Assembly: GCF_963921235.1 (NCBI RefSeq)
Contig: NC_086097.1
Location: 69,876,001-69,940,000, forward strand
Direction: 5' to 3'
From: Mobula hypostoma
Lineage: Eukaryota
DNA: 64,000 bases
Below, one piece after another: positions 8,433 to 42,980 of the stretch (position 1 is the first letter of the stretch; every line of letters starts with the position of its first letter). Both the position numbers and the translations under genes were made by a program. The notes beneath the pieces are model-generated. The model ran no database searches and was not told the origin of the DNA. It saw nothing but the letters and a program-made list of their open reading frames with translations.

Positions 8433-8523
8433 ACATACGCAAAATGCTGGAGGAACTCAGCAAGCCAGGCAGCGTCTATGGAGTGGAATAAACAGTCAAC
8501 GTTTCTGGCCCTTCATCAGGACT
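8433..8523 (-). repeat. Penelope-like element terminal fragment with hammerhead-like motif
   Basis: Same terminal sequence as the PLE ends at ~33950, 35269, 57612 and 59352; - strand AGTC-CTGATGA-..-GAAACGTT-GACT. Confidence 0.75.
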
Positions 8524-8784: not shown

Positions 8785-11700
8785 AAAAGACCAAGGAGCA
8801 GATTTAGGTCATTTGGCCCATTGAGTCTGCTCTGACATTCGATTATGGCTGATTTATTAACCCTCTCAACTCCTTTCTCCTGCCTTCTCCCCACAACTTT
8901 TGACGCCCTGATTAATCAAAAACTAATCAACCTCTGCCTTAAATATACCCAATAACTTGGCCTGCTCAGCTGTCTATGGCAAAGAATTCCACAGACTCAC
9001 TACCCTCTGGATAAGAAATTTTTCCTCATCTCTGCTCTAAGTGCACATCCCTCAGTTCTGAAGTTGTGCCCTCTGGTCCTAGACTCCCTCACTATGGAAA
9101 ATATCCTCTCCATGTCCATTTTGTTTTGGCCTTTCAGTATTCGATAGGTTCCAATGAGATTCTTCCTCATTCTAAACTCCAACGAGTACAACCCAGAGCC
9201 ATTAAACACTGTTCATATGTTTCATGCTTGAAGTTATTCTTGTGAAACTCTTCTGAACTCTCTCTAATAGCAGCACATCCTTTCTTAGATAAGGGGCCCA
9301 AAACTGCTCTCAATACTCCCAAGTGTGGTCTGATCAATGCCTTATAAAGCTTCAGCACTACATCTTTGGTTTTGTATTCCATCCTCTCAAAATGAATGCT
9401 AAATTACACTTGCCTTCCTTATCACCAACTTAAGCTCCAAGTTAGCCTTTAGGGAATTCTGTACGAGGACAGGATCCTCTGCGCCTCTTATTTTTGAATT
9501 TTCTCCCCATTTACAAGATAGTCCACCCCTTTATTACTTCTTCCAAAGTGCATGACCATATGCTTCCTTCCATTATATTCTATCTACCACTTCTTTGCCC
9601 ATTCCCTCAATCTGTCTGAGTACTTCTGCAGACTACTTGCTTCCTCAACACTACCTGCCTGTCCACCTATCTTCGTATTGTCCACAAACCTGGCCACAAG
9701 GGCATCAATTCCTTCATCCAAATCATTGACATACAACGTGAAAAGAAGCAGTTGCAACACCAACATCTGCAGCACACCATAAGACACCGGCAGCCGACCA
9801 GTAAAGGCCCCCTTTATTCCCACTCTTTGCCTCCTGCCAGTTAGTCAATCTTCTATCCATTCTAGTGCTTTTCCCATAATACCACAGGCTTTTATTTTGT
9901 TAAAAAGCCTTGTGTAGCACACTGTCAAAGACCTTCTGAAAATCCAAGTAAACAACATCCACTGACTCTCATTTGTCTGTCCTGCCTGTTAATTCCTCAA
10001 AGAATTCCTTCAGATTTGTTGGGCAAGGTTCCCCCTTTAGAAAACCATGCTGACTTTGGCCTATTTTATCTCGTGCCTCTAAGTACCCGGAAACCTCATC
10101 CTTAATAACAGATATGAACATCTTTCCAGCCACTGAAGTCGGACTAACTGGCCTTTAATTTCCTTTCTTAAGAGTGGAGTGGCATTTGCATCTTTCCAGT
10201 TTTCCAGAACCATGCCAGAATCTAGTGATTCTTGAAAGATCATTACTAATGCTTCCACAATCTCTTCAGCTATCTCTTTCAGAACACTGGGGTGTAGTCT
10301 GTTTGGTCCAGGTGACTTACCTACTGTAAGAATTTTCAACTTTCCAAGCAACTTATTTTAGTAACAGCAATGGCACTTATTATCTGCATCCTGACACTCA
10401 AATGTCTGGCATTCTGCTCGTGTCTCCCACAGTGAAATCTGGTGCAAAATGCTTAAGTTCTTCCTTCATTTCTTTGTCCCCATTACTATCTCTCCAGTGT
10501 CATTTTGTAGCAGTCCATATCCACTCTCATCTCCATTTTACTCCTGTATTTCTGACAAAACATTTGTATCCACTTTTATATTATTGGCTAGCTTAACTTC
10601 ATATTTCATCTTTTATCTCTCTTTGACTTTTTTAATTGCCTTCTGTTGGTTTTTTAAAAAACTTCCCAATCCTGTTACACCCCACTATTTTTTGCTCTAC
10701 TATGTGCCCTCTCTTTTGCTTTAATGTTGTTTTTGACTTCCCTTGTCAGCTGTGGTTATCTCATTCTCCCTTTAAAATATTTCCTTGGGACATATCTATC
10801 CTGTGCCTTCTGAATTGCTCCCAGAAACTCCAGCCTTTGCTGTTCTGCCATCATCCTTTTAGTGTCCCCTTCCAATCAACTTGGTTAACTCCTTTCTCAT
10901 GCCTCTGTAATTGCTTTTACTCCACTTATTTTGATCCATCTGATTTTATCTTCTCCCTCTCAGACTGCAGGGTGAACTTGATCATAAGGTTCCTAATCAA
11001 TTCTAGGTCATTACGTCACACCCAATCCAGGTTGCTGTTCCCCTCGTGGGCTCAACCACAAGCTGCTCTAAAAACTCATCTCTAAGGCATTCTACAAATA
11101 CCCTTTCATGGGAGCCAAAATCAGCACCAAGCTGATTTCTTCCCAATCATCCCATGTATTGAAATCCCCCGTGATTATTACAACATTGTCCTTCTTAACT
11201 ACCTTTTCTGTCTCCCATTGAAGTTTGTGGCCCACATCTTGGTTTCTCTTCAAAGGCCTGGATTTAATTTCCATCAAGGTCATTTAATCCTTACAGTTTC
11301 ATAGATCTACCTACAACAATACTACATCTTCCAATCCTGTGTCACCTCTTTGTAAGGGTTTGATCTAATTTTTTTTTCACCAATGGAGCCACGCTACCCC
11401 TCTGCTTACCTGCCTCTCCTTTCAATACAATGTGTATCCTCCGTGACTTGGAGATGCCCACAAGTTCGTATCTGCCGATCTTTAATTGCGCTACAAGATC
11501 ATCTACCCAGTTCCATATATATTTTGTGCATTCAACTATAACAACCTTCAGTCCTGTATTCATCACCCTTTTTGATTTTGGCTCCCTGTTACACTTTAAC
11601 TCATTCTACTAACTGCAATTTTGCCCTATTATCTGCCTGTCCTTCCTCACAGTCTCACTACACACTGTATAGTGAGACTTGTATAGCAACTGCCCATCCT

Positions 11701-12700
11701 CAGCCCTATCACGACGTTTCCCACCCCCTGCCAAATTAGCTTAAACCCTCCCAAACTGCTCTAGCAAACCTGCCTGCAGGGATGTTTGTCCCCCTTGGGT
11801 TCAGGTGTACCCACCTTTTTTATATAGATCATATCTTCCCCAGAAGAAATACCAATGATTCAAAAATCTGAAACCCGGTCCCCTGTGCTTATTCTTCAGC
11901 TGCACATTCATTTGCCAAATCATCCTATTCTTACTCTAACTGGCACAAGGCACAGGTGGCAATTTAGAGATTACTAGCCTGGAGGTCCTTCTTTTCCGTT
12001 TCTGCCTAACATTCTCTATTCTCTCTTCAGGACCTCCTCCCTTTTCCTACTTATGTCATAGGTACCAATAGGTACCATGACTTCTGGCTGTTCACCCTTC
12101 CTCCTTTAGAATTCCATGGACTCATTTTGAGACATCACTGACCCTGGCATCTGGAAGGCAACATGCCAACCGGGTATCTCTTTCACGTCTACAGAACCTG
12201 CTGCTTTCTGTCCTCTTAATTATGGAATCCCTTGTGATTACTGCATTCCTCTTCCTCTTCTCCCCTTCCCTTCTGACCCACAGAGCCAGACTCAATGCCA
12301 AAGACCTGGTCACTGCAGCTTTAGGTCATTCCTCCCACCCCTTGCTCCTCCCAACAGTATCCAAAGTGGAATATTTATTTTTGATGGGAGTAGCCACAGG
12401 GTATTTTGCAGTGGCTGCCTATTCTTTTTCCCTCTCCTGACAGTCACCCAAGGACTTGCCTCCTGCACCTTAGGGTTGACTATTTCCCTGTAGCTCCTAT
12501 CTGTCATCTCTTCATTCTCCCATATGAGCCAAAGGTCATCCAGCTGAAGCTCCAGTTCCTTAACATGATCGGAGGAGCTGCAGCTCGATGCACTTCATGG
12601 AGATGAAATTATCAGGGAAACAGGAGGTCTCCCATATTTCCCACATCTCACTCAAGGATCATACCACTACTTTCAGATCCATTCTCAGCTCACTAGCTAT
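8785..12700 (-). mobile_element. Decayed near-full-length CR1-clade LINE
   Basis: Frameshifted RT remnants (KSPGP..LHP.VLKE, LYKALIRPHL, GLYSLEFR); ORF1 esterase (DSII..CCLPDARV) and leucine-zipper remnants; boundaries approximate. Confidence 0.85.
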
Positions 12701-18500: not shown

Positions 18501-19003
18501 ATCTATTGGTTATGAGGTCAGTTTGCCATTCACTGTTTTTTGCATTCTGGAATTGCTGTTTAGTAGTCCTGTATTACAAATTCATTTTGTTTGAACTCAT
18601 TATTTTTAGATTTACTTGATGGTGCTTGTGCCTTACCAACTTATTCCCCAATATGAACCAAGCTTGATGTTGATGGTGCACAGTAAATTGTTTAGACCAG
18701 AGAGATATTTTCTGAACTTATTGTATTTAGTGCCACACAATACAGTGATGGGTGTCCTAGGTGTAAAAATGTTTTTTGTCTCCATAAAGAATTTCACCAG
18801 TGTTCCCATGGGCAGACGCATATTATCACAGGTATTTTGGTGAGGACAAGTCGAGCAGCTTTGTTCCCCCGTGTTGGTTTAGGTTTGTCTGACTACCACG
18901 TCAATTGGGAAGCAACCAGCTTGCTCTGTGGTAGTGCTACATAGCCAATGGATGTAGGCATCTCTCCCCTAGAAGACATTTTCTGTCCTTGCTCCCTTCA
19001 TTG

Positions 19004-19255
19004 TGTAAGGGGGTTTCATCTTTTATGTTACTGCGGAGGCTAATTAAAATGGCTTCTTTGTTATGTTATAATCGGGAATGCTTCTTGTTATGTTAAATGC
19101 TGAGAAAGCTTTGCGCTAGCAGCTTTTGTGAGTTGGGGGTGATAAGAGGATGTTATGAACCAATTGGGATAGTTGTTATGACCTTGGTGTATCTGGAAGA
19201 TTTGTATACGCGGGGTTTTGAGGGAGAAGGCAGGAGGGTGGCCAGGGGGGCTACA
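19004..19255 (+). repeat. 5' LTR (252 bp)
   Basis: TGTAAGG...GGCTACA; about 95% identical by eye to 21638-21903. Confidence 0.93.
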
Positions 19256-19258
19256 TTG

Positions 19259-19276
19259 TGGGGGCTCGTCCGGGAT
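19259..19276 (+). promoter_or_regulatory. Primer-binding site complementary to tRNA-Pro 3' end
   Basis: Perfect TGGGGGCTCGTCCGGGAT, 3 nt after the 5' LTR. Confidence 0.93.
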
Positions 19277-20832
19277 TGGGTCTGCTGGTATGCTGTGTGG
19301 GTGCCCTGTTTAAATCTGTAATGTGCGTCTCTGTGGGTTATTTGCTGGTGATTGCTGTATGCATTGTGGGTGCGGTCTTTGTTCGAGTTCAGGCTGGCAT
19401 TAACGAGTTGGAGGTGGCACTCGGGGCTGTCCATGCGGTTGGGATAGAGAGGAAAGAGTGGTCTGATTTGGAGGTAGGGTCTGCGAATAAATGTTCTAAC
19501 TCTGGCAGGCTCCACCTGGCGCTTGGGATAGTGTCCACCCCAAGAGGAGCAGAGACGTGGGCGGAACGGATCTCTCAGTTGTTAGATGAGTGACAGTGCT
19601 TGGTTGAGGGAGAGCGACAGGGATTGGTTGAAAGTTTAAATAAGCGGGCTGGTGACGGTGTTAGAGCTGTCAGGTTCACTTACACTGTAGTGACAGCGGT
19701 CAGTTATTTAAAAGAGGGGGGAAAGTTTTCAGTATGTCTTTTCTGGCTAGGAGGGCAGCCAAATTGCTTGCAGTGCCAGGGGAATCATTTCAGGGGATCA
19801 TGCCCCTCCTTCAGTTGTTCAGCTGATCAGAGAGGTGTCGGGAAACTTAGTGGTGGCCCAGTGGGGGAACGGCTTGGGATCTCTGGGGAAGCACGTTCCC
19901 AGCAATGTACCAATGAACTTCCGCAAGGAAAAGACCCTATTCCTGAAGGCATAGAGGGACCACACCCCAGGGTGTCGTTATGGAGAGAGGGAAGCAATGC
20001 TAAAGCCATCCTCGACCCTGAGGTGCAGGTCAAGTTGCTGTACAGTTCGTTTTTACAACCGGTGTCTGAAGCATTTACCCTTGACAAGCGCAAGGGCACC
20101 GGAGATTTTGGATACCAGTGCCATTAGTTATCCAGAAGACGATGATTGGTTAATGACCCTGGAGTTCATGGGGGCATTGTCTGGGCACCCAGCGTGTCGA
20201 GTTGCTTCTGAGGACGTGTGTAGCAGCCTTGAGCTGGTACTGAATTTAAGCGAAACCCAGTGGTGGTACAGCCTGGGGAAAGTAGCTGAGGGTGAGACCC
20301 TCTTAGTAGATGCTCTGAACTACCATGAGGGAGGGGAGTTGACCGCTGAAGACACCTCAGTGAGAGAGAGATTGCGGCAACTGGACCCTGGCGCCGTGGA
20401 AGATGGAGGCAGCGTGTGTGTGGATTATGCAACGTGGTTTAATGTGCTGGATCTGAGGAGTGGATGTTGCCAGATCCCGAGGAGTGTGGCTTTCGAGCTG
20501 AAGACAGCTGTTATTAGTTCCCTAGGATTCTTCCGATCCGAAAAGATGCCAAGGGCATATCCGGAGCCCCTGCTTCCTTCCCGCGGGGCATGAGGAAGAC
20601 TATGGGGGAAGTGAAGGTGTATGGAGTTTTGCCGTATGTGGATGACCGCCTAGAGGTTGGATTCGCCTGGGGGGACTATGAGGTGAGACGAGTGGCTGAG
20701 CCCGGGCGACAGAAGCGAAGTGTCAAAAGTGTAGGAGTTTTTCGCCAGAGGAGTTTGGTGCAATGTGAGAAAAATGACCTGACATACCAGTTGAATTTCC
20801 TGGTGTTGGAACAGACGGTGGTGGACCTGGGG

Positions 20833-21155
20833 ATGGAAACCCAGGTCGTCAATCTGAATGAGACACGGGAGAGAGGGGATTTGCACCACTGAACTGAGTG
20901 CTCAGAAATGCCAGCCGGAGACTGAGTGCCACAACTGTGGAACGACCATTGCAGACTTGGAGTTCACGCTCGTCAACATGGAGATGGTCAAGAAACCTGA
21001 GTCAGAACTGCGGAGGCTGTGGCAAGAGCTGAAGGAGTCCCCGAAGAAGCTGACGTCTCGACTGCAGGAGGCTGAAGGAGTAGCCCCAGCAAAACGTTTC
21101 AGTTTGGAGAAACTTAACCAGCAGCTACCGATCGAGAGAATGAGGAAGAATACGG
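20833..21155 (+). pseudogene. Captured fragments of sarcomeric myosin heavy-chain rod inside the LTR element
   Basis: [70 protein letters not shown] resemble four separate, collinear MYH rod segments (recalled, not searched). Confidence 0.72.
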
Positions 21156-21624
21156 ATTCGAAGGATGATGTGCTGCCCATGTGGTACATGCTGCCTTTCG
21201 CTAACTTCCCCGTGATTGAGGAAGAGACCTTTGACCCTTCTCCCACTGAGTCAGGTGTAGTGGGGAGGGCTAGCTGTGGGCAGTCTGAGTTACGGCAGGA
21301 TCAGGAAGGAAAAGAAGCAGGGCCCTGGACACGGGACAGGGGGCTCTGAGCTGTAATGGTGGCCTGAGTGAGAGAGGAGTTGGCAAGCAGGCCCGAGGTA
21401 TCCCTAGGAGTGTCTGAGCCTTTTGGGTTTAGGTGAGGGGGTACGGAGGTCTCGGAGGGTTGAGAAGCTCCCAGATGGGTTGGCCTATGTAGCGCCCATG
21501 GGACGGGCGTAAGGTCCACTGTTTGGGGAGCACTGTCACTGTGTGTATCTGTGTATGTGTGTGTTGTGTGTCTGCAGGACTGGTTGGTGAGTTATTTAAA
21601 AGTCATGAGGACATGACTTTATTT

Positions 21625-21637
21625 GGTGGGGGGAGAG
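21625..21637 (+). promoter_or_regulatory. Polypurine tract
   Basis: GGTGGGGGGAGAG directly before the 3' LTR. Confidence 0.85.
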
Positions 21638-21903
21638 TGTAAGGGGGTTTCGTCTTTTATGTAACTGCGGAGGCTAATTAAAATGGCTTCTCTGTTATGT
21701 TATAATCGAGAATGTTTCTTTGTTATGTTAAACGCTGAGAAAGCTTTGCGCTAGCAGCTTGTTGTGAGTTAGGGGGTGATAAGAGGATGTTATGAACCAA
21801 TTGGAATAGTTGTTATGACTTTGGTGTATCTGGAAGATTTGTATGCGCGGGGTTTTGAGGGAGAAGGTGGGAGAGTGACCCTAAGGGTGGCCGGGGGGCT
21901 ACA
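21638..21903 (+). repeat. 3' LTR (266 bp)
   Basis: TGTAAGG...GGCTACA direct repeat of the 5' LTR with an ~11-bp extra segment near its end. Confidence 0.93.
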
Positions 21904-22818
21904 GTTGCTTCTTCCGAGTGTTATTCACCGTGTAGGAGCACTAATTCATCAGCTGAGGGAGGACAGTAGCTGGTAATTAGGAGATGTCTTCATGGGACTG
22001 AATGGGCTCTTGATGTGTTTGAGAAGACAGCAAGGAGTGCTCTCTGATTGTTCCACCATTCCTGGTGGTTCTGTCTGCTGCTGGGACAGGATGTACCCAG
22101 CGATTGTGATGGAGGAGTCTTTACGGTATGGTTTTGTTAATATTATTATGTAAGCTGTTGTTTGACTCGTCTGCGCAACAGCTCTCCAAATTCAGACATC
22201 AGTTCCCAGATGTTAGTAGAACTTTGCTGAATTCAAGACCACTTCAGGGAGTATTTAAGAATCGACCACACTGTTGAATCTGTAGTGCTAAATGTTTTTC
22301 ATACATGAGTGTATCTATTATGCTGCACATACTGAACTACAAAACTGTTGAGTTATAGATGATTTCAGTCAAAATGAAATGAAATGTAATGCATGCAATA
22401 TACAGTACAAGTCAGTACAGTTTCCCAGAGATTGGGAAATGTAGTAATCAGTTGATACACAGCAAAAAAACAACTTTCAAGGTCCTTTACAAGAACATTA
22501 ACAAAATTTGGCACGGAGTAACATTGGTATGTTAGACCACAAGACTCAAAATTTTCTCGTAGGAGAGCAGATTGGAGGAACATCTTGAGGTTGGGGGGGC
22601 ATAGGAAGCGAAATTTGGAACTTCACCCAAGGAGGCTGAGCTTCATTTTCAAAATTGCAACTTTTTGATTAAATTGTGCCGTTTCCATTTTATAAAATCT
22701 TCAGTCCCTTGGATTTCTGGATATGGTGCAGTAAGAACTATATAGTTTGGTATAATTATAATTTGTTTATATTTACATAATTTCCTTTATCAATCTTTGC
22801 CTTGCTTTCTATTCACAG

Positions 22819-23477: not shown

Positions 23478-23647
23478 GTCATGATTGTTCTATTCGCCTG
23501 TGGAACTTGGATAGCAAGACATGTGTTCAAGAGATTACCGCCCATCGAAAGAAATGTGATGAATCTATTTATGATGTAGCCTTCCATCCATCAAAGGCCT
23601 ATATTGCTAGTGCAGGAGCTGATGCCCTTGCCAAGGTGTTTGTGTAA
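23478..23647 (+). CDS. STRN3: Striatin-3 terminal coding exon (SHDCSIRLWNLDSKTCVQEITAHRKKCDESIYDVAFHPSKAYIASAGADALAKVFV*)
   Basis: accag acceptor; canonical striatin C-terminus; TAA at 23645-23647. Confidence 0.97.
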
Positions 23648-37724: not shown

Positions 37725-40700
37725 GACCATAGACTATAAGAGATAGGAGCAGAAGTAGGCCATTCAGCCTATCAAGTGCTCTCATTTCATTATGGCTGAT
37801 CTATTTTCCATTTCAATCCCATTCTTCTGCCTTCTCCCCATAACTTTTCATGCCTTGACTAATCAAGAACCTATCAATCTCCCTAAATACAGTCAAATGA
37901 CCTGGCCAATGGCAATGAATTCCACAAATTCACCACCCTCTTGCTAAATAAATTCCTCCTCCTCCATTCTGTATGTCCCTCTATTCTGAGGGTGTTCGCT
38001 CTGGTCCTAGACTCCCCTACTATAGAAAGTATCCTCACTGCATCTGCTCTATGTTTGGCAAAAGAATAAATCAAGGAAGGTAGTGCACCCATGGCTGACA
38101 AGAGAAATTAGGGATAGTATCAATTCCAAAGAAGAAGCATACAAATTAGCCAGAGAAAGTGGCTCACTTGAGGACTGGGAGAAATTCAGAGTTCAGCAGA
38201 GGAGAACAAAGGGCTTAATTAGGAAGGGGAAAAAAGATTATGAGAGAAAACTGGCAGGGAACATAAAAACTGCCTGTAAAAGCTTTTGTAGATATGTAAA
38301 AAGGAAAAGACTGGTAAAGACAAATGTAGGTCCCCTACAGACAGAAACGGGTGAATTGATTATGGGGAGCAAGGGCATGGCAGACCAATTGAATAATTAC
38401 TTTGGTTCCGTCTTCACTAAGGAGGACATAAATAATCTTCCAGAAATAGTAGGGGACAGAGGGTCCAGTGAGATGGAGGAACTGAGCGAAATACTTGTTA
38501 GTAGGGAAGTGGTGTTAGGTAAATTGAAGGGATTGAAGGCAGATAAATCCCCAGGGCCAGATGGTCTGCATCCTAGAGTGCTTAAGGAAGTAGCCCAAGA
38601 AATAGTGGATGCATTAGTGATAATTTTTCAAAACTCGTTAGATTCTGGACTAGTTCCTGAGGATTGGAGGGTGGCTAATGTAACCCCACTTTTTAAAAAA
38701 GGAGGGAGAGAGAAACCGGGGAATTATAGACCGGTTAGCCTAACGTCGGTGGTGGGGAAACTGCTAGAGTCAGTTATCAAAGATGTGATAACAGCACATT
38801 TGGAAAGCAGTGAGATCATCGGACAAAGTCAATATGGATTTGTGAAAGGAAAATCATGTCTGACGAATCTCATAGAATTTTTTGAGGATGTAACCAGTAG
38901 AGTTGATAGGGGAGAACCAGTGGATGTGGTATATTTGGATTTTCAAAAGGCTTTTGACAAGGTCCCACACAGGAGATTAGTGTGCAAACTTAAAGCACAA
39001 GGTATTGGGAGTAAGGTATTGATGTGGATAGAGAATTGGTTAGCAGACAGGAAGCAAAGAGTGGGAATAAACGGGACCTTTTCAGAATGGCAGGCGGTGA
39101 CTAGTGGGGTACCGCAAGGCTCAGTGCTGGGACCCCAGTTGTTTACAATATATATTAATGACTTGGATGAGGGAATTAAATGCAGCATCTCCAAGTTTGC
39201 GGATGACACGAAGCTGGGTGGCAGTGTTAGCTGTGAGAAGGATGCTAAGAGGATGCAGAGTGACTTGGATAGGTTGGGTGAGTGGGCAAATTCATGGCAG
39301 ATGCAATTTAATGTGGATAAATGTGAAGTTATCCACTTTGGTGGCAAAAATAGGAAAACAGATTATTATCTGAATGGTGGCCGATTAGGAAAAGGGGAGG
39401 TGCAACGAGACCTGGGTGTCATTATACACCAGTCATTGAAAGTGGGCATGCAGGTACAGCAGGCGGTGAAAAAGGCGAATGGTATGCTGGCATTTATAGC
39501 GAGAGGATTCAAGTACAGGAGCAGGGAGGTACTACTGCAGTTGTACAAGGCCTTGGTGAGACCACACCTGGAGTATTGTGTGCAGTTTTGGTCCCCTAAT
39601 CTGAGGAAAGACATCCTTGCCATAGAGGGAGTACAAAGAAGGTTCACCAGATTGATTCCTGGGATGGCAGGACTTTCATATGAAGAAAGACTGGATGAAC
39701 TGGGCTTGTACTCGTTGGAATTTAGAAGATTTGAGGGGGGATCTGATTGAAACGTATAAAATCCTAAAGGGATTGGACAGGCTAGATGCAGGAAGATTGT
39801 TCCCGATGTTGGGGAAGTCCAGAACAAGGGGTCACAGTTTGAGGATAAAGGGGAAGCCTTTTAGGACTGAGATTAGGAAAAACTTCTTCACACAGAGAGT
39901 GGTGAATCTGTGGAATTCTCTGCCACAGGAAACAGTTGAGGCCAGTTCATTGGCTATATTTAAGAGGGAGTTAGATATGGCCCTTGTGGCTACGGGGATC
40001 AGGGGGTATGGAGGGAAGGCTGGGGCGGGGTTCTGAGTTGGATGATCAGCCATGATCATAATAAATGGCGGTGCAGGCTCGAAGGGCCGAATGGCCTACT
40101 CCTGCACCTATTTTCTATGTTTCTATCTAGGCCTTTCAACATTCGATAGGTTTCAATGATATAGCCCCTCATTCTTCTAAATTCCAGCGAGTACAGGCCT
40201 AAAGCCATCAAGTGCTCCTTATCCTCATTCCTTTTCATTCCAGGAATCATTCTTGGGAATCTCCTCTGAACCCTCTCCAATGTCAGTACATCCTTTCTTA
40301 GACAAGGGGCACACACTGCTTACAATACTCCAAATGAGGCCTCACTTGTGCCTTGTAAAGCCTCAGCATTATGTCCTTCCTTTTATATCCTAGTACTCTC
40401 AAAATAAATGTTAACATTCCATTTGCTTTCTCACAATTGACTTAACCTGCAAGTTAACATTCAGGGAATCCTGCACAAAAGCTCCCAAGTTATTTGAATT
40501 TTTGATTTTCTGCCCATTTAGAAAATAGGCTATGCTATTTTCATTCTACAAAGTGCACGACCATACACTTTCTGTAACTATTCCATCTGTCAATTCTTTG
40601 CCAATTCTCCTAATCTAAGTCTTTATACTACCTCCCTGCTTCTGCAATACTACCTGCCCCTGCACCTATCTTGATATCATCCACAAAGCTATCAATTCCA

Positions 40701-42980
40701 TCATCCAAATTGCTGGCATATGATGTGAAAAGAAGTGGTCCCAACAACCTCTGTAGAACACTGCTAGTCACCTGCAGCCGACCAGAAAAGGCTTCCTTTA
40801 TTTCCACTGTTTGCCTTCTGCCAATCAGTATATCCTCTATCCATGCTGGTGTCTTTTCTGTAATACCATGCTCTCTTGTTAAGCAGTCTCATGTGCAGCA
40901 CCTTGACAAAGGCCTTCTGAAAATCCAAGTACATAATGCCCACTGATTCTATTCTGCTTGTTATTTCTTCAAAGAATTTGGACTGATTTGTCAGGCAAGA
41001 TTTTCCCTTAAGGAAACCATGTTGAGTTTGGCCTATTTTATCATGTGCATCCAAGTACCCTGAGACTTCATCCTTTTACAATCCTCCCAATTATTGAAGT
41101 CAGAGTAACTGGCCTATAATTTCCTTTGTTCTGCTTCCCTCCCTTCTTGAAGAGTGGAATTTTCCAGGACTCCGGAACCATGCTAGAATCTAGTGATTCT
41201 TGAAAGATCAGTAGTAATGCCTCCACAGTCTCTTCAGCTACCATATTCAGAACCCTGGGGTATAGTCCATCTGATCTACCTTACCAAGCATCTTCTCCCT
41301 AGTAATAGTTAATGCACTCACTTCTGCCCTCTGACACTCTCAAGCTTCCGCCATACTGTTCGGGTCTTCCACTGTGAGGGCGGATACAAAATACTTATTT
41401 GGTTTGTCCGCCATTCCCTTGTCCTCCATAAGTACCTATCCAGCGATCTGACATCTTCTCTCGCCTCTTTTTTTTAAACTCTATTTATCGGGGGGAAAAA
41501 AGCTTTTGATATCCTTTTCGATATTATTGACCAGCTTATCTTCATATTCCATCTTTTGCTTATAGTTTTCTTAGTTGCCTTCTGTTGGTTTTTAAAGGCT
41601 TCCCAATCCTCTTAACTTCCCACTAATTTTTGCTTTACTGTAGGCCCTCCCTTTTGCTTTTATGTTGTTTATGACATTCCTTATCAGTCTGTCTTTAAAA
41701 TACTTTTTCTTTGGGATATATCTATCTTAAGCTTTCTGAATTGCTCCCAGAAACTCCAATCACTGCAATTCTGCTAATGTCCTCTTCAAATCAACTTCGG
41801 TCAGCTCCTCTCTCATTCCTCTATAAACCCTTTACTGCACAGTAATACTGATTCATCTGAATTTAGCTTCTCCCTCTCAAACTGCAAGGTAAATTCTATC
41901 ATATTATTATTACTGGCCTCTAAGGGTTCCTTTACCTTAAGCTCTCTTATGAATTCCAGTTCATTGCACGACACCCAATCCAGAAGTAGCTGTTCCCCTA
42001 GTGCGCTCAAACATGAACTGCTGTAAAAAGCCACCACATAGGCATTCTACAAATTCTCTATCTTGGGATCCAGCACCAGCCTGATTTTTCCAATCTACCT
42101 GTGTATTGAAATCCCCCATGATTATCCATGAGGGGTTAACTTCACCGAGAAGGATTCTACATCTTCCAATCCTATGTCACCTCTTTGTAAGGATTTGATT
42201 TCTACAGAGCCCAACCCTTCTGCCTACCTGTCTGTCCTTTCAATACAATATGTATCCTTGGAAGTTAAGCTCCCAACTATGATTTTCTTTCAGACAAGAC
42301 CTTATTCTATATACTGCATACATTCAAATATAACAACTTCAATCCTGTATTCATGAGGCTTTTATATTTTGCCCCCATGTTACACTGCAACTCATCCCGC
42401 TGACTACAATTTTGCCCCATCATCTATCTGTCCTTTGTGACAGTCCCACTGCACAGTGCATCTAGTTGTGTACCAACTGCCTAATCCTCAGCCCTATCAC
42501 TCTAGTTCCCATCCCCTTGCCAAATTAGTTTAAAGCCTCCCCTGCAGCTCAAGCAACCCTGCTCACAAGGATATTGGTCCCCTTCAGGTTCAGGTGTAAC
42601 CTGTTCCTTTTGTACAGTTCATACATACCCTGGAAGGGATCCCAAAGATCCAGAAATCTGAAGACCTGCCTCTGGCTCCAGTTCTTTGGCCATGCATTCA
42701 TGTGCCAAATCATCTATTCTCACTTGCACTGGCATGTGGCACAGGCAGCAATCCAGAGATGACTACCTTGGAGATCCTGCTTTTCAGCTTTCTACCCAAC
42801 TTCCTAAATTCTCTCTTCAGGATCTCCTCCCTTTTCCTACTTGCGTTGGTGATACCAATGTGCACCAAGACTTTTGTCTGCTCATCCTCACCCTTCTGAA
42901 TGCCATGGACCCGATCCGAGACATCCATGACCTTGGCATCTGGGAAGTAACTTACCATTTGGGTGTCTCTTTCACGAGTG
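37725..42980 (-). mobile_element. Old CR1 LINE split by a younger CR1 insertion
   Basis: 3' end at ~37725; RT remnants (QHGFLKGKSCLTN, YLDFQKAF, LERVQRRF) at 40127-41100; ORF1 esterase remnant at 42710-42958. Confidence 0.85.
38053..40126 (+). mobile_element. Young 5'-truncated CR1 LINE with nearly intact RT ORF
   Basis: 555-aa ORF (KSPGPDG, YLDFQKAFDKV, GVPQGSVLGP, KFADD); one frameshift near 39731, C-terminus continues to 40036; (TTTCTATG) tail; TCTAT at both junctions. Confidence 0.93.

Follow-up and report, generated by a model that had tools for sequence, protein, structure and literature searches.

Does an LTR retrotransposon of a devil ray carry a piece of a host myosin gene and, if so, from which gene did it come, by which route, and is it of any use to the element? 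The locus that raises this question lies at positions 20833–21155 of a 64,000-nucleotide stretch of Mobula hypostoma DNA (contig NC_086097.1, positions 69,876,001 to 69,940,000, forward strand), which we call the window throughout. From the letters alone, the initial annotation had proposed that a Gypsy element acquired a spliced myosin mRNA in sense orientation by template switching and then lost most of it. The peptides behind this proposal are indeed present at these positions on the + strand, in two frames, with the stretch from TELSAQK to RMRKNT in the second frame. We consider it very likely, taking the account as a whole, that the locus belongs to a non-autonomous Gypsy family in which MYH16-type exons were caught by a template switch and are carried as cargo rather than as a working coiled coil.

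Positions 19004–21903 hold a single copy, now decayed, of a non-autonomous Gypsy LTR retrotransposon family, with all its parts on the + strand. The copy is bounded by a left target-site duplication (19000–19003) identical in three of four bases to the right one (21904–21907), and by a 5′ LTR of 252 bases (19004–19255, TG..CA) and a 3′ LTR of 266 bases (21638–21903) that diverge by 4.4%. The primer-binding site, which we take to be that of tRNA-Pro, directly follows the 5′ LTR (19259–19276), and a polypurine tract, recognised from its sequence and the same in other copies, occupies 21622–21637. Between them lie a PNMA-like gag remnant that is internally deleted and, in the window copy, broken (19424–19913), remnants of protease and reverse transcriptase with large deletions (19911–20711; RVT_1 is below cut-off in relatives) and an RNase H remnant (20734–20825) which a deletion of the young family fuses straight onto the myosin piece; the names RNase H and, below, integrase are assigned from motifs.

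Host myosin-rod sequence occupies 20820–21136 of the window in three pieces. The first (20820–20996) agrees in 138 of 174 bases with a donor exon at C68:14524969–14525196 of genome G000 and overlaps, at 20978–20996, the second (20978–21043), which matches the start of a donor exon at C68:14666491 in 53 of 66 bases and ends at a family-wide internal deletion junction. The third piece (21043–21136) corresponds to the donor exon at C68:14707345 up to the 3′ switch (80 of 102 identical). It is followed at 21137–21330 by the end of a Gypsy linker and the C-terminal tail of pol, including RMRKNT, with 75% identity to the tail of the integrase-bearing relatives L124 and L125; the integrase itself is missing here. 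A two-base gap near 20868, private to the window copy among 21 aligned young copies, splits the reading frame of the myosin part.

Each LTR of the window copy falls about 430 bases short of the family length, and the loss therefore predates the insertion of this copy. The last coding exon of a striatin-3-like gene was found at 23480–23644 (+ strand; Striatin-3 residues 659–713, E = 1.8e-30); the element lies upstream of the last exons of this gene on the same strand, presumably within an intron. Elsewhere in the window we observed two long diverged copies of another repeat (9220–12098 and 40233–42888, 76–84% identical blocks) and several short interspersed copies with a common end of 50–56 bases (at 8433, 33897, 35305, 57613 and 59296), which we take to be LINE- and SINE-like.

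The initial annotation had left it undecided whether this was a gene-carrying family or a single chimeric copy, and the genome search spoke for a multi-copy non-autonomous family. Patterns of 25 bases across the junction inside the myosin piece and across the myosin-tail junction gave 583 and 710 matches in G000, respectively, which are lower bounds at two mismatches; reversed-pattern controls gave 0 matches. When G000 was searched with the window sequence, 40 of 1545 candidates were scored and found to be, the window itself aside, 92–95% identical, most of them with about 430 extra bases in the myosin part. The longer, less deleted versions that had been proposed as a search target thus exist, and nine older relatives described below also belong to them. 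The young set comprises 21 loci (20 and the window), and the LTR pair was measurable in 11, where the two LTRs are 3.8–7.6% apart (median 4.4%). LTRs measure about 690 bases in the ten other measurable copies as against 252 and 266 in the window, and 10 of the 11 have exact 4-base target duplications, the window copy being the exception.

Paired TG..CA LTRs with a 4-base target duplication, a primer-binding site after the 5′ LTR, a polypurine tract before the 3′ LTR and the order protease, reverse transcriptase, RNase H, integrase (in 18 of 30 relatives, integrase-like sequence comes after RNase H) assign the family to Gypsy. The reverse transcriptase was recognised by Pfam RVT_1 in P0006 and remained below cut-off in P0013; for gag, the Pfam match to PNMA is just below cut-off in Hypanus relatives. 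In the interior, deleted remnants of gag, protease, reverse transcriptase and RNase H precede the myosin piece and the pol tail. No myosin-bearing copy examined is autonomous: all lack integrase, and their reverse transcriptase and RNase H are internally deleted. The integrase-bearing relatives seen are decayed (70–83% identical), and no young intact helper element was identified among them. Later deletions delimit subfamilies, the large deletion of the window copy being shared with L013, and the copies in G000 grade from host-like ones into derived ones. The copies of the young family have a frame break in gag in common. A programmed −1 frameshift at this break was considered, but the candidate heptamers vary between copies. 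The CxxC-like peptide of the gag region is not a zinc knuckle, as it lies in an alternative frame made by a deletion.

Taken alone, the 91-residue window peptide is borderline as a myosin. Its best PDB match is an MYH7 fragment at E = 0.034, and a Pfam search with this peptide and with P0001 recognised no myosin family; an older copy reached Myosin_tail_1 at E = 0.0005, below the Pfam cut-off. The 568-residue open frame of L031 (P0001) aligned with MYH7 residues 912–1096 at E = 2.6e-13, gapless over about 170 residues, and the window DNA aligned with the host gene at a best score of 131 bits, compared with a maximum of 35.6 among 50 codon shuffles. The window DNA fits three exons of one host gene in order, which bears out the expected collinear multi-segment match to myosin. 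Longer proteins holding the myosin region were searched for and none was found among 1253 candidates, which is weak evidence. The sarcomeric MYH stretches named in the initial annotation were aligned to MYH7 through the longer copy L031, with the exception of the last one, ERMKKN. Its supposed counterpart in the element, RMRKNT (21138–21155), follows the 3′ switch, in sequence that aligns to the myosin-free Gypsy form and to the pol tail of integrase-bearing relatives, so that the resemblance of the two motifs is due to chance; the capture stopped well before the ERMKKN region.

The donor is a gene at C68:14480496–14719552 of G000 (L053, L054, L069–L088 and L119) with introns of up to 44 kb. 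A search of G000 with a classic myosin exon gave 21 matches, comprising 12 gene exons and the nine older relatives of the element with fewer deletions. In the old copy L061, nine exons of the C68 gene follow one another in order at 80–96% identity, joined at AG/GT borders and without the donor introns of 2.7–39 kb. These exon joins, which the initial annotation had named as a check, are direct evidence of a spliced mRNA source: a Gypsy element captured a spliced myosin mRNA in sense orientation. The donor exon at 14524969–14525196 is 87–91% identical to old element copies, the captured donor exons contain no stop codon when joined, and the gene extends past the captured part.

A classic sarcomeric MYH gene had been expected as the donor, an expectation that did not hold. 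The borders of the donor's rod exons coincide with those of a complete MYH16-type gene at C36:112.72–112.75 Mb (for MYH16, see the part of PMC11050549 used here) and not with those of the classic sarcomeric genes, and residue identity to the C36 gene is 42–75% per exon. The donor is an intact multi-exon MYH16-type rod gene. It differs from MYH16 in being a second, diverged gene, located on C68, whose introns are very long and in which no motor exon was detected. A search for the most conserved motor exon, with 54 of 54 candidates scored, located it in 11 muscle-type genes and nowhere near the donor (the rod-exon search gave 12), and none was found in the 54 kb upstream of the donor. The donor is probably headless, unless an assembly gap or strong divergence hides the motor, and may represent a paramyosin-like rod gene of rays without a head. 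Over captured exons D–E, the donor shares 90% identity with an electric-ray protein (XP_069785580). The most CpG-rich of 1476 intervals scored over 295 kb is the 5′ edge of the first captured exon, and an in-frame ATG is located just upstream of this exon, at the CpG island (C68:14524700–14524970) and inside the S2 region. An internal CpG-island promoter beside the first captured exon may have made the donor RNA; we infer it to explain how this RNA met a germline particle.

Other myosin genes were rejected as donors. The exons of classic sarcomeric genes match just short stretches at about 70–88%, matches of the C36 MYH16-type gene are likewise limited to short stretches, and non-muscle myosin genes and dispersed MYH9-like pieces gave no match. 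Eight classic sarcomeric myosin heavy-chain genes are clustered at C68:15.30–15.91 Mb, about 0.6 Mb from the donor, and several of them are 99% identical in the exon tested. Upstream of the first known exon of the donor, a solo LTR of a related Gypsy family lies on the opposite strand (C68:14471861–14472375). We also observed dispersed, decayed pieces of a non-muscle myosin II rod (L044–L049 and L052, at C18:48745314–48746731 and on C50, C184, C21, C22, C9 and C12; also on C157) with a common 5′ leader and a common 3′ end seemingly running into intron sequence. Compared with the Gypsy insert they gave no match, and they are perhaps a second myosin-carrying mobile element.

RefSeq includes proteins from Mobula birostris, M. 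hypostoma, Hypanus sabinus and Hemitrygon akajei in which reverse-transcriptase remnant, myosin and tail are fused, and in all three genera the records long enough to cover the 3′ junction agree in it. Independence from G000 is not assured for the Mobula records, so that the outside support comes from the two stingray genera. Hypanus has three single reading frames of 729 amino acids that run from gag to tail and are 93–97% identical. Deletions of their own mark the stingray versions, whose proteins are 40–62% identical to young G000 copies in the main blocks of the alignment. RefSeq titles of element copies include 'myosin-16-like' and 'myosin heavy chain, cardiac muscle isoform-like'; P0004, P0009, P0005, P0021, P0023, P0026, P0030, P0056 and P0171 are labelled as myosins or host genes, and two host-named records (transmembrane protein 192 and glutathione S-transferase theta-2) are made up of the element's frame. 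Myosin counts of ray genomes are consequently inflated by these names.

The part of PMC6485097 used here dates myliobatiform diversification to the late Late Cretaceous and the origin of pelagic rays to near the K-Pg boundary, and under vertical descent these dates would place the capture beyond about 65 million years. If a later horizontal transfer explained the presence in devil rays and stingrays, the family would not need to predate their split, and in derived tail residues the Hypanus and Hemitrygon proteins do agree with the G000 subfamilies of young and middle age and not with the oldest. The graded series in G000, from host-like to derived copies, and the separate deletions and low protein identity of the stingray versions make such a transfer rather unlikely.

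To what extent the captured frame is used was judged from lineage changes, which 80% or more of the young copies have and the old ones lack, in comparison with private changes. The myosin part was scored against the donor exons in 21 of several hundred young copies, and the codon context used to class private changes was that of the host or the reference, which is an approximation. Lineage changes in the myosin part comprise 31 silent, 68 replacement and 0 stop changes, and private changes 34, 99 and 9, respectively. In the pol-derived part, 22 silent and 84 replacement lineage changes were counted with no stop in the young state, as against 112 silent, 255 replacement and 11 stop changes among private ones. 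Pooled, stops account for 0 of 205 lineage and 20 of 520 private changes (p = 0.0017). The ratio of silent to replacement changes in the myosin part (31:68, private 34:108; p = 0.24) does not differ from decay, and no residue constraint was detected in the pol-derived part of G000 copies. The pol-myosin frame was kept stop-free in the replicating lineage while its residues drifted, and this drift makes a working coiled coil unlikely. Young inserts share a proline at 8 of 238 positions compared with none in 323 host codons; stingray proteins have 1–2 prolines in 119–173 myosin-derived residues.

Shared deletions in the myosin part are in frame in 8 of 8 cases and private indels in 5 of 35, although large shared deletions and small private indels are not compared like for like here; a ninth shared deletion measures 106 by the chain method and 105 after netting a one-base gap. 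Repeated glutamate codons tend to guide in-frame deletion without selection.

The myosin piece would be a working part if a fusion protein of Gag, reverse-transcriptase remnant and coiled coil aided packaging or mobilisation. Such a protein would agree with the in-frame position of both junctions relative to pol, with the missing stops among lineage changes, with the three long Hypanus frames, which contain one proline in 119 myosin-derived residues, and with the 710 matches of the myosin junction pattern as against 4 of the myosin-free one. Both patterns, however, were fitted to known copies, and of the two forms the myosin-free one is the older and more decayed, so that the preponderance of myosin-bearing copies over their parent is suggestive. 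A silent-to-replacement ratio indistinguishable from decay, the eight shared prolines of the young family and the deletion of different rod parts in different subfamilies render a working fusion unlikely, and the protein constraint of a functional chimeric retrogene like Bs1 was not found in the G000 copies. Most likely, judging from these changes, the myosin is cargo and not a working coiled coil. Element RNA likely fares better, in stability or packaging, when ribosomes read through it, whatever the residues; the shared frame break in gag means that continuous translation from the gag start cannot be what the young G000 family preserves. In four contig runs that are not on record as RNA and in which the striatin control exons are blank, depth was 20–2250 on the element and 0–23 on its flanks.

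The insert might alternatively shield the element from silencing, or silence the donor, if small RNAs directed at the element had the host gene as a second target. The large expansion of myosin-bearing over myosin-free copies, the CpG island at the captured exon, which hints at germline transcription, and the closeness of old copies to the host (3424 of 5299 26-base windows with at most two mismatches) are in line with this idea. Young copies, on the other hand, match the host in just 919 of 8552 such windows, and almost no targeting is found at 79–82% identity in the part of PMC13534243 used here. Anti-silencing capture of the TART/nxf2 type involves a gene of the silencing pathway, whereas the donor is a structural myosin rod gene, whose captured exons D–E are 90% identical to the electric-ray relative and give no sign of flight from targeting. 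We therefore regard a role in silencing as distinctly improbable. Neither of the uses suggested in the initial annotation, a source of small RNAs or a coiled-coil peptide, found support, the latter in view of the eight shared prolines of the young insert.

The route of capture was deduced from the junctions. The RNase H end missing from the young family, used as a query, gave 40 matches; among the 30 loci analysed, 18 continue into integrase, six pass directly from the linker to the tail without myosin, five carry myosin (four of these were among the copies already identified) and one is truncated. In the chimeras, myosin occupies the place of about 60 linker bases of the myosin-free form, and it is most likely, given these forms, that integrase was lost before the capture and not replaced by it. 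At the 5′ switch, linker and donor agree in 12 of 13 bases including the last two of the intron (10 of 11 if the exon alone is counted), and no other site in the 1796 host bases scanned does as well. The agreement at the 3′ switch is 10 of 12 bases, one of three such sites; 29 of 200000 random sequence pairs reached 10/12. Both near-matches lie 3′ of the crossover. In minus-strand switching, the nascent strand anneals 3′ of the crossover, so that similarity is needed on that side. The near-matches at both junctions strongly support template switching by reverse transcriptase as the capture route, the one initially proposed.

The position of the 5′ junction, at the very start of an exon, would also follow from splicing. 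An upstream insertion of an element into the donor could have produced this junction by read-through transduction, leaving the 3′ junction alone to template switching, and the solo LTR of the related family is situated in an upstream intron. This LTR is on the opposite strand, however, no gag-pol remnant longer than about 55 bases was detected in 99 kb upstream, the myosin-free forms have no GT donor at the position of the 5′ junction, and the 12/13 near-match already accounts for the site, all of which makes the splicing route very improbable. A LINE-made processed pseudogene dropped into a Gypsy copy, which would fit the lost introns and the other dispersed myosin-derived pieces in the genome, is refuted by the junction structure and hardly merits consideration, as the insert replaced linker, ends inside an exon, shows near-matches to the element at both ends and has neither poly(A) nor a duplication at its borders.

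With template switching as the preferred route, the following order of events may be proposed. An autonomous Gypsy element would first have lost its integrase through an in-frame deletion, an order suggested by the surviving forms. The polymerase would then have swapped from element RNA to a co-packaged host mRNA and back at two purine-rich near-matches, with the result that about 60 bases of linker were replaced by myosin mRNA. Every copy examined lacks about 200 internal myosin codons; no copy holding the deleted rod middle was found, and the deleted exon matched the donor and two paralogues only (3 of 3 candidates), so this part may have been lost at capture or soon after. The chimera would have been copied in trans by related autonomous elements, and further deletions would have worn it down into several subfamilies. 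The deletions that delimit the subfamilies confirm that captured myosin was lost internally at later stages, as had been predicted.

One can speculate that the capture made a defective element a winner: a headless MYH16 duplicate driven by a germline CpG island would have provided stop-free, host-like RNA escaping decay or silencing, the parent would have been outnumbered more than 100-fold, and the family would have survived since the split of stingrays and devil rays, more than 60 million years ago. We put this forward as possible but doubtful.

Gene capture by LTR elements in animals is known mostly from young, low-copy cases, and the ray capture represents a large, long-lived family. One genome holds all stages, namely integrase-bearing, integrase-deleted, freshly chimeric and eroded forms, together with the donor gene. 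Existing genomes allow tests of whether captured host sequence boosts the success of an element and of why non-autonomous elements retain open frames after their proteins cease to matter. In addition, a second, probably headless MYH16-type gene in rays has been brought to light. Within a literature search whose scope lay outside Repbase, subscription journals and supplements, no paper describing the ray myosin-Gypsy family was found, nor was a description of its scale, its persistence or the full series of intermediates.

Acutely transforming retroviruses capture oncogenes in defective, helper-dependent genomes. The ray element resembles them, as well as HERV-K/FAM8A1 (described in the part of PMC5131818 used here), in being defective and helper-dependent and in having intron-free host sequence fused in frame to gag-pol remnants. 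It differs from both in being a Gypsy element that is germline, long-lived and multi-copy and whose cargo is a structural rod without evident benefit. Telomeric elements of Drosophila with captured nxf2, piwi or aub, as reported in the relevant part of PMC13534243, likewise carry host exons and have more copies than their non-capturing kin; they are non-LTR elements with piRNA-pathway cargo and targeting shown by small-RNA data, whereas the ray element is of the LTR type and carries a structural rod gene.

The nearest family-level precedent in the sections of PMC5131818 considered is maize Bs1, which has 1–5 copies and three donor genes and is argued there to be a functional hybrid gene. Both are non-autonomous LTR elements with captured cellular exons, switch points common to the copies and an open hybrid frame. 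In contrast to Bs1, the ray family has hundreds of copies, one donor and no detected residue constraint.

Among animals, the same sections (Tan et al. 2016) report LTR-linked retrocopies as 5 of 7 in zebrafish, 4 of 10 in chicken and 8 in mouse, which are young or polymorphic and include cases of further copying as non-autonomous elements. The ray capture agrees with these in that a partial spliced mRNA, devoid of the parental introns, replaces an internal part of the element in sense and in frame, with short similarity at both switch points, with neither poly(A) nor duplication, and with later rounds of non-autonomous copying in which the switch points are shared. It differs in having founded several subfamilies with at least 583–710 copies in one genome, in its presence in three genera and in the survival of both precursor forms. 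The mechanism is thus known from Tan et al. (PMC5131818), as far as the sections considered describe it, and what is unusual in the ray family is its copy number, its host span, its complete intermediates and the retention of an open frame.
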